From Candidatus Moranbacteria bacterium RIFOXYB1_FULL_43_19 (GTDB taxonomy: Bacteria; Patescibacteriota; Minisyncoccia; Moranbacterales; UBA11712): a stretch of DNA of 64,000 nt. This document shows, in pieces, positions 6,316-56,476 of the stretch (its first letter is position 1; every line of letters begins with the position of its first letter). The notes under the pieces are model-generated. The model made no database searches. It was given only the letters and a program-made list of their open reading frames with translations, and had not been told where the DNA came from. The translations under genes and the position numbers were made by a program. Location of the stretch: contig MFSH01000008.1 of assembly GCA_001784875.1 (NCBI GenBank), forward strand, positions 1,555 to 65,554. The letters are read 5' to 3'.

Positions 6316-7623
6316 ATGAAAAAAATATTTTCTAAAGTAAAATTATTTCCCATATATTCAGCAAATATCGGAGTAGTATTTTTAGCTGTTCTTCTTTTTG
6401 GGAAAATGGGAACAGGGGCGGCGGTGCCGTCCCAGAAGGAAATTATCAAAACCAGAATCGATGACCTCCGCAAGCAAATAGAAATATATCAAAAAAATAT
6501 TGAGGAAAAAAACCACAAGGAAGAGTCGCTTTCAAATGATATTGAAATCCTTGAAGCCGACATAAAAAAGATTGAGCTTCAAATTCAGGAAACAAATCTT
6601 CAAATTGACGCCCTTGAGGGAGAAATAACTCAGAAAGAAATTGAAATTGAAAAAATGCAAAAGCAGCTTGAGGCAAAGAAAGAGATGCTGGCGAAATTTT
6701 TGCAGGAGCTTTATGAAAAGGGCGGGGGAGAAACATCTGAGATTGTATTCAGTGGGCAAAGCTTTTCGGATTATTTCTCCAAAATCGAGAGCCTTGAAAG
6801 TTTTGAAGACCAGATCAAAGAGACACACGACCAATTGGAAGCTTCGCGGAATGTGCTCAAAGGCGAGAAAGAAAATTTGGTGGACAAAAAAATAGACAAG
6901 GAAAATTTGAGAGGTATGCAGAATGACCAGGAAAGATCACTAGAGCGCGAAAAACAAATGGAGACACTATTGATTTCCCAAGTCAGAAATGAAAGGCAGG
7001 CTCTGGAAAAAAATGTAGGCAGGCTCCAAGCGGAACTAAGCGAGCTCCAGTCGCTTGGCGAGCCAATCAATTTGGAAGAAGCGGTAAAGGCGGCGAAATA
7101 CGCTGCGGATCTCACGGACGTGGCGCCTGAATTTTTGCTAGGGGTGCTTCGGGTTGAATCGGGACTGGGAACGAACGTCGGCGGCGGAAAATACAAATCG
7201 GACATGAATCCGTCTCAGTGGGATACTTTTAAAAAAATTTGCAAAGAGCTTGGGCTCGATCCGGACAAAACTCCCGTTTCCCGCCGGGCTTGCTACAACA
7301 GTGAGGCGAGTGACGGATGCGGTGGATGGGGAGGGGCGATGGGTCCAGCTCAATTTATGCCTTCGACCTGGATGGGATATAAGAGCCAAATCGAAAAAAC
7401 CACGGGCCGCTCTCCGGCCAACCCATGGGACGTCGAAGATTCTCTTGTGGCCATGGGTTTGAAACTCGGGTCAGTTGAAGGAGTGAAAGCGGGGGATAGG
7501 AAAGCTTGGGCAAAAGCGGCGGGAATGTATCTCGCGGGTTCTAACTGGGAAAAGTATTCCTGGTATTCAGACAGGGTTCTTTATTACGCGGACGGGTTCA
7601 AAAAAATAATGAAAAAATATTGA
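6316..7623 (+). CDS. coiled-coil protein with a C-terminal lytic-transglycosylase (SLT)-like domain
   Basis: A signal/TM segment is followed by about 250 aa of heptad-rich coiled coil. It ends in an SLT-like domain (LRVESGLGTN...GPAQFMPSTW). The ATG at 6316 is preferred over the TTG at 6301. Confidence 0.6.
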   Translation: MKKIFSKVKLFPIYSANIGVVFLAVLLFGKMGTGAAVPSQKEIIKTRIDDLRKQIEIYQKNIEEKNHKEESLSNDIEILEADIKKIELQIQETNLQIDALEGEITQKEIEIEKMQKQLEAKKEMLAKFLQELYEKGGGETSEIVFSGQSFSDYFSKIESLESFEDQIKETHDQLEASRNVLKGEKENLVDKKIDKENLRGMQNDQERSLEREKQMETLLISQVRNERQALEKNVGRLQAELSELQSLGEPINLEEAVKAAKYAADLTDVAPEFLLGVLRVESGLGTNVGGGKYKSDMNPSQWDTFKKICKELGLDPDKTPVSRRACYNSEASDGCGGWGGAMGPAQFMPSTWMGYKSQIEKTTGRSPANPWDVEDSLVAMGLKLGSVEGVKAGDRKAWAKAAGMYLAGSNWEKYSWYSDRVLYYADGFKKIMKKY

Positions 7624-53401: not shown

Positions 53402-53644
53402 TTAAGATCTCGTGATAACACGGACTCGCTGGTCCATGGTGTTCTGCATGTCCGTACTGGTTCCCACAGAAATGATTTTTTCCGCGCAGGCCTGATTCTC
53501 AAGGTAATTCAAGAACTCAGACAAGACGAGATCATCCGTGGCGCCAGTGAAAGCTCGATCCAGTGCGCGCCTTCCATCTTGAGTAACCAGGGCTTCGTAC
53601 TCGCTGCCTTTGAATTTAATCCGTACCTCGTAAACCATTATCAT
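53402..53644 (-). CDS. hypothetical small protein (80 aa)
   Basis: A strong SD (AAGGAGG) precedes the ATG at 53644. Confidence 0.45.
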   Translation of the reverse strand: MIMVYEVRIKFKGSEYEALVTQDGRRALDRAFTGATDDLVLSEFLNYLENQACAEKIISVGTSTDMQNTMDQRVRVITRS

Positions 53645-53655
53645 GGCCGGCCTCC

Positions 53656-53976
53656 TTAGCTGATTGGCTCGATCGGGGTCACTGGCGTCGATTGGTGAAG
53701 TTCGTAATAATTGTCGCCAGGTCCTAAGATTGGGATGATATCCCGCCCCGGATTTTCCATCGGTCGCACGACGACAAATTTTACGCCGCCGTTATTTGGC
53801 CAGCCCAGTTCGAAGAGTCGCCAGGGTTCCATTTCGCCGAGAGGGATTAAGGGTAATTTTTTATACATCTCTCCCAGAGGAGGGGGAACGTCCAGACGCT
53901 TGCCTATAAGATACAAACCTGACAACACCAGTGCAACGAAGCACAAAGCGATTCCAATGATATCCACTTTTTCCAT
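53656..53976 (-). CDS. hypothetical small membrane-anchored protein
   Basis: An N-terminal TM segment (IIGIALCFVALVLSGLYLI) and an AAGGAGG SD just upstream of the start region. Confidence 0.45.
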   Translation of the reverse strand: MEKVDIIGIALCFVALVLSGLYLIGKRLDVPPPLGEMYKKLPLIPLGEMEPWRLFELGWPNNGGVKFVVVRPMENPGRDIIPILGPGDNYYELHQSTPVTPIEPIS

Positions 53977-54043: not shown

Positions 54044-55342
54044 ATGTCAATGCAAACCATAAAATCTAAAATCTCCAATCTCCCCAAATCTCCCGGTGTA
54101 TACGAATTTCGCGATAAGCAAGGGAAAATTCTTTATATTGGGAAAGCAACGAGTCTTAAGAGCAGGGTGGGGAGCTATTTCGGAAATTTTTCCAAGACTA
54201 AGTCTTGGAAAACCACAAAACTTAGTCTTGAGAGAGGGCCACGGATTGTTGAAATGGTCTCGCGAGCTACAGAAGTAAAAATCCATGAAACCGATTCGGT
54301 TCTCGAAGCCTTGATTTTGGAATCGAATCTCATCAAAAAGTACCAGCCGAAATATAATGTGATGGCGAAAGATGACAAGAGTTTTGGCTATTTTGTGATC
54401 ACCAAAGAAAAATTTCCGCGAGTGGTGATTTTCTGGAAAACGGAGCTGGGGAAAGTGCCGGCAAAAAAAATATACGGGCCGTATCTATCAAAATATCAAA
54501 TGAATATTGCTCTGAAACTGATTCGCCGAATTTTTCCGTTTCATTCCAACAAGCAGCAAACCGAAAAAGGGTGCCTTGATTTCCAAATCGGCCGGTGTCC
54601 CGGACCGTACGTGGGAGCTATTACGAAAAAAGATTATCTCAAAAATATCCGCAATATCGAGATGATACTCCGAGGCGAAAAAAAGCGGCTCGTCAGCTCG
54701 CTTAAAAAAGAAATGAAAAATTGCGCGAAGAACCACGAATTCGAAAAGGCCGCCGAAGCCCGCAACCGAATTTTCGCGCTCGAACATATCAGGGATGTTG
54801 CATTGATAAACCAAGACTTAGTCTTGGAAAATTCCAAGACTAAGTCTTGGGGAAGGATCGAGGCCTATGATATTTCCAATATCGGCGGTGATTATGCGGT
54901 TGGTTCGATGGTCGTTTTCACGAACAGCAAAGCGGATAAAAACGAATATCGTAAATTCAAAATCAAAACAGTCATTGGTGTTGACGATGTTGGTATGATG
55001 AAAGAAGTTTTAGCTCGGCGTTTTAGGAATAATTGGCCGAAACCGGACCTGATTCTCCTCGACGGGGGGAAGGGCCATCTCAATATGGCCCAGAAAATAA
55101 TGGAGGAATTGAAACTCGAAATCCCGATCATTGCTGCTGCCAAAGGGCCGACACGAAAAAAAATCGATATCTACCAGTCAAAATACCTCTTGACATATCT
55201 TGGTCGAAATGAGGAAATAAGGGAGAGGTATAACAGTATATTGAGTGATGCGAAGCTAATCGAGAGAATTCGCAACGAAGCCCATCGCTTTGCGATCAGT
55301 TATCACAAGAAATTACGACAGAAAAATTGGAAAAGTAGATAA
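54044..55342 (+). CDS. uvrC: excinuclease ABC subunit C, short form lacking the C-terminal (HhH)2 domain
   Basis: The GIY-YIG module (GVYEF...ILYIGKA), a UVR domain (EFEKAAEARNRIFALEHI) and an RNase-H-like endonuclease domain are present. Two in-frame CCAAGACTAAGTCTTGG insertions lie at 54192-54232 and 54811-54851. Confidence 0.8.
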   Translation: MSMQTIKSKISNLPKSPGVYEFRDKQGKILYIGKATSLKSRVGSYFGNFSKTKSWKTTKLSLERGPRIVEMVSRATEVKIHETDSVLEALILESNLIKKYQPKYNVMAKDDKSFGYFVITKEKFPRVVIFWKTELGKVPAKKIYGPYLSKYQMNIALKLIRRIFPFHSNKQQTEKGCLDFQIGRCPGPYVGAITKKDYLKNIRNIEMILRGEKKRLVSSLKKEMKNCAKNHEFEKAAEARNRIFALEHIRDVALINQDLVLENSKTKSWGRIEAYDISNIGGDYAVGSMVVFTNSKADKNEYRKFKIKTVIGVDDVGMMKEVLARRFRNNWPKPDLILLDGGKGHLNMAQKIMEELKLEIPIIAAAKGPTRKKIDIYQSKYLLTYLGRNEEIRERYNSILSDAKLIERIRNEAHRFAISYHKKLRQKNWKSR

Positions 55343-55391
55343 GCATATCTAGTACAGTAATACAGTATACTATACCGAATGTCCTTGTCGT

Positions 55392-55436
55392 CCCCCGAAG
55401 TATAAATGCTTCGCATTTAACTACGGGGCAGGCAAT
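55392..55436 (+). repeat. conserved hairpin element (paralog of 50331-50370) immediately upstream of the tRNA locus
   Basis: CCCCGAAGTATAAATGCTTCGCATTTAACTACGGGGCAGGC differs from the uvrA copy by compensatory AACGC/GCGTT to AATGC/GCATT changes. It is flanked by a duplicated TGTCCTTGT. Confidence 0.4.
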
Positions 55437-55442
55437 GGATAT

Positions 55443-55464
55443 GTCCTTGTAGCTCAACTGGATA
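55443..55464 (+). other. tRNA-like 5' fragment (acceptor strand plus D-arm start: GTCCTTG-TA-GCTC-AACTGGATA)
   Basis: It matches a canonical tRNA 5' end up to the D-loop. The cloverleaf then breaks off into a GC-rich hairpin. Confidence 0.3.
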
Positions 55465-55534
55465 CCTGCCCGCTTCGAGTCGCGAAGCGAGTCGGGCGGG
55501 GAGTGTTGGTTTCCGGCCGCCTGCTTGCGCTTTT

Positions 55535-55606
55535 GCCCTTGTCGTTCAATGGATAGGACGCAAGTTTCCGGAACTTGAAATATAGGTTCGATTCCTATCA
55601 AGGGCG
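55535..55606 (+). tRNA. tRNA-Arg (anticodon CCG)
   Basis: A clean cloverleaf. The acceptor stem GCCCTTG pairs with CAAGGGC. The D-arm reads TCGTTCAATGGATAGGACG. The anticodon stem-loop reads CAAGT-TTCCGGA-ACTTG. The T-arm carries GGTTCGATTCC. There is a discriminator G and no encoded CCA. Confidence 0.85.
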
Positions 55607-55636
55607 CAAAAAAAAACGGGCAGGGAACCAAAGATC

Positions 55637-55661
55637 GCAGGTTCGAGTCCTGCCAAGGACG
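55637..55661 (+). other. tRNA-like 3' fragment (T-arm GCAGG-TTCGAGT-CCTGC plus acceptor strand CAAGGAC and discriminator G)
   Basis: A perfect T-arm consensus. Its acceptor strand is the exact complement of the 5' fragment at 55443-55449. Confidence 0.3.
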
Positions 55662-55726
55662 CAATTTTTAGGTTCGATTTTTACCCGCCAAAGTGAGAGT
55701 GTCGGCGTGCCTGTCGAGGGCACAGA

Positions 55727-56476
55727 TTATAAATTCTTTATCCCAATCACCGCTATCATTGCTTCGACTTCTTTGGGTTTATCCCTTCTTGCCGAGAAAT
55801 ATTTTCCAAGTAGCTCAAAAGTGCATTCGGAGCTGATTTCTATATTTTTGCTATATATACCCAAAGATAGAAGCTGCAATTCGGCGACTTTTTTTATGTC
55901 CAAAAAAATTTTATTGCCTTTTCTTTTTATCGCCTCCGGATATTTTGCGAATTTTTTCGCCACTTCCAGACCGATTTCATAGTGTTTTTGGCAAATCGCC
56001 GGGCCGATGCCAACTAAAATATTTTGTGACTTACCTCCCGATTCTTTTATTTTCCCGACTGCGTTTTCTAAAACATTTCTTTCTAAGCTTCGCCAGCCGG
56101 CATGAACCATCCCGACTATCTCTTTTTTCGGATCAAACAAGAAAATCGGCAGACAATCGGCGGCTGTAACTGATAAAAAAATGTTTTTTTGATCGGTGAC
56201 TAAGCCGTCTGTACCTGTGAATCTTTCTCCTTTATTTTTTGCGGATACATATTCAACTCGATTTCCGTGGCATAATTCTCCGCTGGAAACATCTTTGGGA
56301 AAGATGCCAAAAATATTCAAAAATTTCTTCCTGTTCCTCAGATTTTTTTTCATCAAAACAGAATTATTATTCTGGAATTTCATTGACCCGTCTGTTTTTT
56401 GCGAGAACAAAACCAGAAGGCCTCGATATCTTTTGAATAAAGCAAAATTACATTGCATCTTTTCCCTGGAGTTCAT
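55727..56476 (-). CDS. YfiH/PgeF-family (DUF152) laccase-domain protein / purine nucleoside phosphorylase
   Basis: The product carries VTAADCLPIF, GMVHAGWRSL and CTFELLGKYFSARRD. Confidence 0.75.
   Translation of the reverse strand: MNSREKMQCNFALFKRYRGLLVLFSQKTDGSMKFQNNNSVLMKKNLRNRKKFLNIFGIFPKDVSSGELCHGNRVEYVSAKNKGERFTGTDGLVTDQKNIFLSVTAADCLPIFLFDPKKEIVGMVHAGWRSLERNVLENAVGKIKESGGKSQNILVGIGPAICQKHYEIGLEVAKKFAKYPEAIKRKGNKIFLDIKKVAELQLLSLGIYSKNIEISSECTFELLGKYFSARRDKPKEVEAMIAVIGIKNL

Follow-up and report, generated by a model that had tools for sequence, protein, structure and literature searches.

How does a complete transfer RNA (tRNA) gene come to lie between the two ends of another tRNA gene, and which of them still makes a tRNA? 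The question is raised by a site downstream of uvrC in Candidatus Moranbacteria, members of the Candidate Phyla Radiation (CPR), within a 64,000-nucleotide stretch of the genome RIFOXYB1_FULL_43_19—the window, in whose coordinates positions are given here. A sequence-only reading had described, at 55443–55661, an intact tRNA-Arg(CCG) gene between the separated halves of a disrupted tRNA-like gene. We find that this arrangement is real and larger than first described, and that one descriptive claim about it was wrong: the locus holds tRNA-Arg(CCG) genes nested in three layers at a single chromosomal site, and 55443–55661 is too narrow, since the nest extends to 55381–55722. An inner gene lies inside a second gene (layer O), which lies in turn inside a third and more decayed copy (layer X) that the first description did not include. 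The same nest is present in a second species. It is probably a new form of disrupted tRNA gene in which only the innermost copy works as a tRNA; a search of the full-text literature found no published description of a tRNA gene nested in a tRNA gene. As to its origin we favour, with modest confidence, serial insertion of one gene into another at a tRNA locus, with only the inner copy functional.

The layers can be read directly from the repeats that they share. A direct-repeat search places three tRNA 5' ends (55381, 55443, and 55535) and three T-arm/3' ends (55584, 55639, and 55669) in nested order (Table 1). At the borders of layer O, the 5' end GTCCTTG-TA-GCTC-AACTGGATA (55443–55464) and the T-arm with its acceptor 3' strand, GCAGG-TTCGAGT-CCTGC-CAAGGAC-G (55637–55661), stand as first read, as do the run of nine A (55608–55616), the intact tRNA gene, and the GC-rich hairpin, whose full extent is 36 nucleotides. 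The 3' strand of the D-stem and the anticodon arm of the outer gene had been taken to be missing; both are present, at 55501–55516 (GAGT-G-TTGGT-TTCCGG) and at 55626–55631, the latter within A-ACCAA-AGATC at 55626–55636.

Table 1. Features of the nested tRNA-Arg(CCG) locus in window coordinates, in order along the sequence; fractions are identical positions in the homologous locus L018 unless another sequence is named.
Feature	Positions	Strand	Remarks
Promoter-like motif TAGTACAGTAATACAGTATACT, with TATACT as possible -10 box, 9 nucleotides before the first tRNA-like 5' end	55350–55371	+	Conserved upstream in relatives
X, acceptor 5' strand, positions 8–9, D-stem 5' strand (GTCCTTG TC GTCC)	55381–55393	+	Repeat family D2; 12/13
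Hairpin hpA, inserted in X	55394–55428	+	Homologues in L018 and L022
CAGGC, then X D-loop AATGGATA, then T	55429–55442	+	12/14
O piece 1: acceptor 5' strand, U8 A9, D-stem 5' strand, D-loop	55443–55464	+	22-mer is the start of ordinary tRNA-Arg genes
Insertion 1, hairpin hpB (36 nucleotides), at 21/22 of O	55465–55500	+	Absent from L018
O piece 2: D-stem 3' strand GAGT, G26, anticodon-stem 5' strand TTGGT, loop TTCCGG with CCG	55501–55516	+	14/16
Insertion 2, left flank CCGCCTGCTTGCGCTTTT	55517–55534	+	14/18
Inner intact tRNA-Arg(CCG), no encoded CCA, presumed functional	55535–55606	+	ARAGORN; Rfam RF00005
Insertion 2, right flank, C A9 CGGGCAGGG	55607–55625	+	Contains CGGGCAGG
O piece 3: A38, anticodon-stem 3' strand ACCAA, variable loop AGATC, T-arm, acceptor 3' strand, discriminator G	55626–55661	+	27/36
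Putative X positions 22–33 (GGAC G CAATT TT)	55657–55668	+	Family D3; 12/13 identical to AGGACGCAAGTTT of the inner tRNA
X, T-stem 5' strand and T-loop (TAGG TTCGATT)	55669–55679	+	Exact 11-nucleotide repeat of the inner T-arm (family D5); homologues in L017 and L103
Hairpin hpC, between T-loop and T-stem 3' strand of X	55680–55709	+	Same TTTACCCGCC... start in L017 and L103
X, T-stem 3' strand, acceptor 3' strand, discriminator (CCTGT CGAGGGC A)	55710–55722	+	Conserved in L017 and L103

Joined end to end, the three pieces of layer O form a 74-nucleotide cloverleaf in which 21 of 21 stem pairs are made (20 Watson–Crick and one G-U), with U33, the anticodon CCG, a purine at 37, A38, G18 G19, A20, and T54 T55 C56 in place; ARAGORN calls the joined sequence tRNA-Arg(CCG), the anticodon of the inner gene. 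None of 500 sequences in which the three pieces were shuffled before joining gave any tRNA call, and in 14 other genomes uninterrupted tRNA-Arg genes begin with exactly the 22 nucleotides of the first piece—an exact 22-mer scan of the genomes returned ordinary uninterrupted tRNA-Arg genes and nothing else. For these reasons we do not regard layer O as a chance likeness. ARAGORN does tolerate odd D-arms and variable arms: with two deletions placed at random, 177 of 500 sequences were still called as tRNA, which made such placement uninformative as a control of specificity.

Layer O is interrupted twice, by the hairpin hpB in the D-loop (21/22) and by a 109-nucleotide insert in the anticodon loop (37/38; 55517–55625) that consists of 18 nucleotides, the inner tRNA, and 19 nucleotides. 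A two-nucleotide GG repeat makes the cut at 37/38 equivalent to one at 35/36 or 36/37; the 37/38 boundaries are the same in the second species. An intron-permissive search with overlapping intron-containing genes allowed (ARAGORN -io) recovers the outer gene in the unedited sequence of L018, as i(37,110) enclosing the inner gene, and in the window once the hairpin is removed, as i(37,109). Removal of insertion 2 from the window gave an alternative tRNA-Arg(tcg) that uses hpB as its anticodon arm, which we regard as a forced solution. Of the earlier suggestion that an intron or an insertion splits the outer gene, the insertion stands, as the gene is complete and colinear and is cut at 37/38 and 21/22; a spliced intron is not supported.

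The layers also differ in ancestry. O is 72% identical to the inner gene and is of a different sequence lineage, whereas X, which matches the inner gene at 50 of 56 retained positions (hand count), shares the lineage of that gene; the order from outside to inside is I-type (X), O-type (O), I-type (inner). Family D2 links the 5' end of X with those of the other two layers, family D1 joins the third piece of O to the 3' end of the inner tRNA, and CAATGGATA in X exactly repeats the inner D-loop (family D8). The acceptor 3' strand of X pairs at seven of seven positions (two G-U) with 55381–55387. Approximately 15 nucleotides of X are gone, namely the anticodon, the 3' strand of the anticodon stem, and the variable loop; with this deletion and its hairpin insertions, X is more decayed than O. 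The segment at 55657–55668, which the likeness to the inner tRNA would assign to X, overlaps the last five nucleotides of O (GGACG), a microhomology at the O-in-X junction that has the same arrangement in L018. O sits in X at 21/22—the position at which the 36-nucleotide hairpin interrupts O itself.

These boundaries bear on whether the nest is only apparent, that is, a tandem array of tRNA-Arg(CCG) genes whose first copy lost its 3' part and whose last copy lost its 5' part. Such an array would account for 5' ends repeated upstream and 3' ends repeated downstream, and the locus does undergo deletions (L103, L022, and L017). However, at 37/38 the two parts of O complement each other exactly, without overlap, gap, or any missing or duplicated base beyond the GG; both parts come from one lineage unlike the gene that they enclose, and one level up, at 21/22, the same is true. 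It would be rare for two independent deletions to fall in this way twice, and the relatives have so far yielded only single genes or nests, with no intact three-gene tandem array among them. A deletion-fusion product, one of the explanations first offered, is therefore disfavoured, and we consider it unlikely.

Among the relatives the locus is found in several states. The gene order uvrB-uvrA-uvrC-[tRNA-Arg(CCG)]-Cu-oxidase_4/Sua5-IMPDH is kept in Moranbacteria whose UvrC proteins are 75–80% identical (BLASTP), and what stands at the tRNA position differs among them. One species (L018/L019) matches the window in having X, O, and an inner gene of I-type, but it has no D-loop hairpin and the 3' half of its O is weakened. 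L103/L104 retain the 5' part of X, the D-loop hairpin, and then O-like GAGCGTCGGT; their intact gene belongs to a third lineage (N-type), and pieces 1 and 3 of O are gone. L022 has an I-type 5' fragment in which a short version of hpB occupies the same place in the D-loop and an hpA-like hairpin lies elsewhere; an N-type gene comes next, and then a terminator. In L017 an N-type gene directly follows uvrC and is followed by an X 3' fragment with hpC; in L020, L021, and L023 a single I-type gene is preceded by a degenerate 5' fragment and followed by a 3' fragment, which has a hairpin in its T-loop, and then by a terminator; L025 has a plain N-type gene and no shell. No tRNA follows uvrC in L024, L102, or L105, and the shell motifs are absent from approximately 80 more distant uvrC loci. 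The sharing is mosaic: the promoter-like motif of the window recurs in L022 and L103, its X and O shells in L018, hpB in L103 and L022, and hpC in L017 and L103. The single tRNA-Arg(CCG) gene of L020 is flanked by an imperfect direct repeat, CTAGCAATTATAAAAAA before it (6325–6345) and CTAGCTATAAAAATA after it (6419–6434), also present in L021 and L023; it resembles a target-site duplication and may bear on how tRNA units are inserted.

Could the nest have been made by the assembly of a metagenome? The source is a metagenome-assembled genome, and in one assembly of the same organism (GCA_001784775.1, locus L016) a run of N interrupts the sequence within the inner tRNA. On the other side, the same sequence is found in GCA_001784975.1 and, up to that scaffold gap, in GCA_001784775.1; the homologous nest of the other species is present in two independent assemblies (L018 from JGI and L019 from NCBI); and the repeats shared between layers are imperfect and at most 26 nucleotides long, too short to mislead a k-mer assembler. 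An artefact is thus highly improbable. The break in L016 (7300–7597), at ...GTTTCC, is a place where the nested repeats evidently troubled the scaffolder, and the 86-bp "deletion" that it seems to show was rejected as a natural variant, being a scaffold gap of N.

The setting is a bacterial chromosome, and not an archaeon, phage, or plasmid, as judged from the proteins encoded in the window: MurA, PBP2 (mrdA), bacterial-type ThrRS (thrS) and LysRS (lysS), UvrA, UvrB, UvrC, IMPDH, and Sua5, with UvrC matching, at 100% identity, a protein from Candidatus Moranbacteria bacterium RIFOXYA1_FULL_44_7. The nest has uvrA, uvrC, Cu-oxidase_4, DUF378, Sua5, and IMPDH as neighbours, with no integrase or transposase near the locus. 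This bears on another of the explanations first offered, that the fragments are attachment-site remnants from integrative elements with tRNA genes as their targets. Tyrosine integrases typically cross over in the anticodon loop or the T-loop, and the T-arm/acceptor 3' fragments downstream of the intact tRNA (window, L017, L018, and L020) resemble displaced attB halves. Against this, 5' fragments are duplicated upstream as well, and the order is nested rather than tandem; the inserted unit is only 109 nucleotides long and includes an entire tRNA; neither between the repeats nor near them is there an integrase or element gene, and no integrase-bearing element was found at the seven distinct loci; and in 698 kb of sequence the hairpins do not recur as dispersed repeats. 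We regard attachment-site remnants as very unlikely. The second tRNA gene of the window (Gln) has no such surrounding shells.

Which layer, then, makes a tRNA? The inner gene scores 62 bits against Rfam RF00005 (E = 4.9e-11), above the gathering score of 29 that marks a canonical tRNA. Within its lineage (window, L018, and L020) all 21 stem pairs are kept, with 100% of cells paired and six pairs changed on both sides; pairing kept through such compensatory change points to a working tRNA, and we presume the copy at 55535–55606 to be functional. Layer O, which is redundant in that it has the same anticodon, shows another pattern between the window and L018: no pair is changed on both sides, five one-sided changes all lead to G-U, and one T-stem pair is broken. 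In L018 the variable loop of O is shortened to three nucleotides, and in the window the hairpin interrupts the D-loop. A different lesion in each lineage is the pattern predicted under relaxed selection on O as a decoder; together with the lack of compensatory changes, it supports the shells as relics rather than decoders—a comparison that covers two O-bearing species.

Serial insertion would explain this anatomy as follows. Replacement genes, each a gene with a few flanking bases, would have been inserted one after another, as DNA, into loop positions of the resident gene. O would have entered position 21/22 of a still older X, a more decayed copy of the inner lineage; the inner gene, with its 18- and 19-nucleotide flanks, would have entered the anticodon loop (37/38) of the older O-lineage gene; and O would have acquired its 36-nucleotide hairpin at 21/22 of the D-loop in this genome. 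The locus would also exchange segments between lineages. Every copy is followed by CAA and never by CCA, so the inserted units would be copies of genes or precursors and not retrocopies of mature tRNAs. The bases shared at the junctions—GGACG for O in X and GG for the inner gene in O—hint at microhomology-mediated joining.

Expression of the inner gene from within the nest can be pictured in the same terms. One promoter ahead of layer X would transcribe everything, with a start that probably lies just before 55381. The motif TAGTACAGTAATACAGTATACT, for which promoter function is suggested by its TATACT box and position, occurs once in the window and is kept upstream of the locus in L022 and L103/L104, not in L018; on the + strand it was not called by a generic sigma-70 scan. 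Downstream of the outer 3' fragment L020 and L103 have terminators, which places the shells inside the transcription unit. RNase P and RNase Z would cut out the inner tRNA, leaving the shells as leader and trailer, and these would pair with each other through the outer acceptor stems and a 9-bp extended anticodon stem, with no decoding tRNA made from them. This stem and a 5-bp GCCTG/CGGGC helix, with the inner tRNA at the tip, are present in both the window and L018; the flanks of insertion 2 can pair through GCCTG/CGGGC and through their T-run and A-run. A minimum-free-energy fold of the 342-nucleotide unit recovers the inner cloverleaf, the acceptor stem of O, and the stalk, along with competing pairings.

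Several points weigh against the view that the shells are mere relics of insertion. Transcription and processing of the nest enter it as inferred steps. The shells are also far more conserved than would be expected of neutral DNA: between the window and L018 they are identical at 146 of 174 positions (84%), and the stretch from X to the end of O, inner gene included, at 209 of 246 (85%), against 55% for third positions of uvrC (42% over the last 40 codons) and 47% for its four-fold sites, where the random expectation is 26%. The hairpins hpB and hpA are 92% and 93% identical to their counterparts in L103 and L018, respectively. In the window every stem of O is intact and the insertions all fall at loop positions, as in structured RNAs under selection; the six stem changes between window and L018 are all transitions, and five of them preserve pairing. 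Taken together, these values suggest either constraint on the shell at the RNA level or recent exchange between lineages, later than the divergence of uvrC, of just this segment of approximately 320 bp, and the mosaic sharing makes such an exchange plausible. Strong constraint is in turn opposed by the several close relatives that are without part or all of the shell.

The same observations are the case for a second explanation, in which the shells are kept by selection as a tRNA-like scaffold for processing or stability: the 219-nucleotide unit would be cut out with tRNA-like ends and thereby protected, and the inner tRNA freed from the tip of the stalk, much as if nature had made its own version of the engineered "tRNA scaffold". 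A minihelix of acceptor stem and T-arm is the least that RNase P, RNase Z, and the CCA-adding enzyme need as substrate, and O retains it intact. The scaffold would fit the shell identity seen beside near-saturated synonymous sites, with no recombination tract reaching into uvrC, the locus-specific hairpins that are conserved and fold stably in three species, the restriction of insertions to loops with all O stems intact in the window, the mostly pairing-preserving transitions, and the stalk kept in window and L018. It fits poorly with the close relatives that have no shell or half of one (L025, L017, L022, and L103), with the lack of any both-side compensatory change in O (two sequences only), with the broken T-stem pair and three-nucleotide variable loop of O in L018, and with the competing pairings in the minimum-free-energy folds. 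We hold a selected scaffold to be possible, though clearly less probable than the serial insertion of genes that have since become relics.

A more radical explanation is that O itself also gives rise to a functional tRNA-Arg(CCG), the second from this locus. Excision of the inner tRNA by RNase P and RNase Z would take the place of the endonuclease step, the ends would be trimmed and ligated by an RtcB- or Rnl-type ligase, and the D-loop hairpin would be removed or tolerated. The perfect cloverleaf with the bases listed above in place would suit such a role, as would the insertion exactly at the canonical 37/38 site and the fact that positions variable between the window and L018 are mostly those variable in real tRNAs. 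On the other hand, the product would be redundant with the inner gene, and two separate removals would be needed, one of them at a site for which bacteria offer no known precedent; the copy in L018 is weakened in structure, and L103 has lost two of the three pieces. We know of no such tRNA-maturation pathway in bacteria, nor, to our knowledge, do bacteria have tRNA splicing endonucleases. No register of a bulge–helix–bulge (3-nucleotide bulge, 4-bp helix, 3-nucleotide bulge, with flanking helices) was found at either insertion in the window or L018, which, with the bacterial host, led us to reject an archaeal host with introns of that type. Neither is there a self-splicing core: a group I core needs approximately 100 nucleotides or more on its own, the 109-nucleotide insert has 37 outside the tRNA, and a search for a group I intron core or any other Rfam family beyond the inner tRNA found none at the gathering score or, for this region by itself, at E ≤ 10. 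Maturation of O is accordingly unlikely.

In a bolder form of the same idea the nest would be a matryoshka precursor, in which excision of the inner tRNA is itself the cutting step of a protein-only splicing reaction in a bacterium, one tRNA acting as the intron of another; the outer halves would then be trimmed and joined by ligation, a single transcript thus giving two tRNA-Arg(CCG) molecules, or, in a weaker form, would persist as a stable two-piece tRNA-like RNA with a function of its own. We think this improbable. A transfer-messenger RNA (tmRNA), which would also explain separated 5' and 3' ends, was rejected: an ARAGORN tmRNA search and Rfam were negative, and the third acceptor pair is C3-G70, not G3-U70.

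The hairpins that interrupt the shells form a subject of their own. hpB folds at -20.7 kcal/mol (z = -2.4), is identical at 33 of 36 positions in L103/L104, and has a shorter version at the same D-loop position in L022; it folds in all three. Its region 55469–55481 holds TTCGAGT, the T-loop of the outer tRNA, between CCCGC...GCGGG, and the hairpin contains the seven-nucleotide direct repeat CGAGTCG twice; hpB may itself be derived from a T-arm. hpA, taken with the preceding C, folds at -16.8 kcal/mol (z = -5.4), and its homologues in L018 and L022 have z scores of -5.6 and -4.5. It shares with L022 (2052–2081) the core AAATGCTTCGCATT and a CCCCG...CGGGG clamp at different tRNA-like positions—13/14, after the D-stem 5' strand, in the window and near 30/31, at the anticodon stem-loop junction, in L022—so that either the hairpin moved or the locus was rearranged. 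L018 and L020 have other hairpins inside the T-loop in place of hpC.

The two insertions of O are further connected by CGGGCAGG, which is the reverse complement of the first eight nucleotides of hpB. Its two copies, at 55465–55472 (-) at the start of hpB and at 55617–55624 (+) at the end of the anticodon-loop insert, are the only ones in the window and form inverted repeat I1; they could make a long-range helix between the insertions. A near copy, CGGGGCAGG, closes hpA at 55424–55432. As an over-represented signal the 8-mer CGGGCAGG/CCTGCCCG was rejected, since two copies are not above the window-wide chance count; the inverted-repeat placement stands. We likewise rejected the hairpins as dispersed palindromic repeats—of the kind of miniature inverted-repeat transposable elements (MITE) or repetitive extragenic palindromic (REP) sequences—or as phage-borne, since hpA, hpB, and hpC have no copies outside this locus in the window or in 698 kb of CPR sequence, and none in viral contigs.

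Bacterial tRNA genes have been described as uniform, with introns of groups I and II as the sole known interruption (PMC4033280). In the nest one complete tRNA gene sits within another, and it does so at 37/38, the site that introns occupy in all domains of life. One likeness is to tRNA genes of archaea and some algae with bulge–helix–bulge introns, in which colinear pieces cut at 37/38 and at a non-canonical site (here the D-loop) give a perfect cloverleaf (PMC4033280, PMC4090602). The Moranbacteria locus differs in its bacterial host, in the absence of a bulge–helix–bulge, and in an "intron" that is a complete tRNA gene with the same anticodon; joining of the pieces was not seen. In Patescibacteria the anticodon loops of tRNA genes commonly contain group I introns (PMC13011429), and the phylum, the kind of gene, the insertion in the anticodon loop, and the failure of standard annotation to find the interrupted gene are all shared with that system; in contrast, the insert here has no group I core and is 109 nucleotides long, 72 of which are tRNA.

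Two further systems resemble parts of the nest. The 3' fragments displaced by integrative elements are, like those seen here, partial T-arm/acceptor copies downstream of an intact tRNA, but the nest is two-sided, its inserts are tiny, and it has no integrase or cargo. In the engineered "tRNA scaffold" used for RNA expression, the RNA to be produced takes the place of a tRNA's anticodon loop. The nest likewise carries a foreign structured RNA on an anticodon stem, with an intact acceptor stem and T-arm that could direct end-processing; it differs in being natural, in having a tRNA as passenger, and in that any function it has is putative.

A nest of this kind is unexpected in a bacterium and is kept in at least two species, and its likeliest reading is as an evolutionary relic and not a new mechanism. 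If the layers are relics, they record the in-place replacement of an essential single-copy tRNA gene, with tRNA loops as preferred landing sites; if the shells are selected, they represent a new kind of structured pre-tRNA. Either way, standard annotation reports the inner gene only, and ARAGORN -io calls that enclose another tRNA offer a simple screen for the frequency of such nests in Patescibacteria.

Some smaller observations concern the open reading frames (ORFs) at and beside the nest. Two mechanically called ORFs with TTG starts cross it, at 55296–55664 (-; 122 amino acids) and 55575–55982 (+; 135 amino acids); both are almost certainly not genes and could be mis-annotated as hypothetical proteins. 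UvrC (54044–55342, +) has only 432 amino acids, with GIY-YIG, UVR, and an RNase H-like endonuclease domain that ends at residue 418, which leaves no room for the usual C-terminal helix-hairpin-helix domain; its close relatives all have 400–470 amino acids, so the short form is typical of the clade. Between uvrA and uvrC, at 53402–53976 (-), lie two small opposite-strand ORFs of 80 and 106 amino acids, the longer of which matches no Pfam family. In L016 both have been called as genes, and L018 and L020 have ORFs of about this size at the corresponding place.

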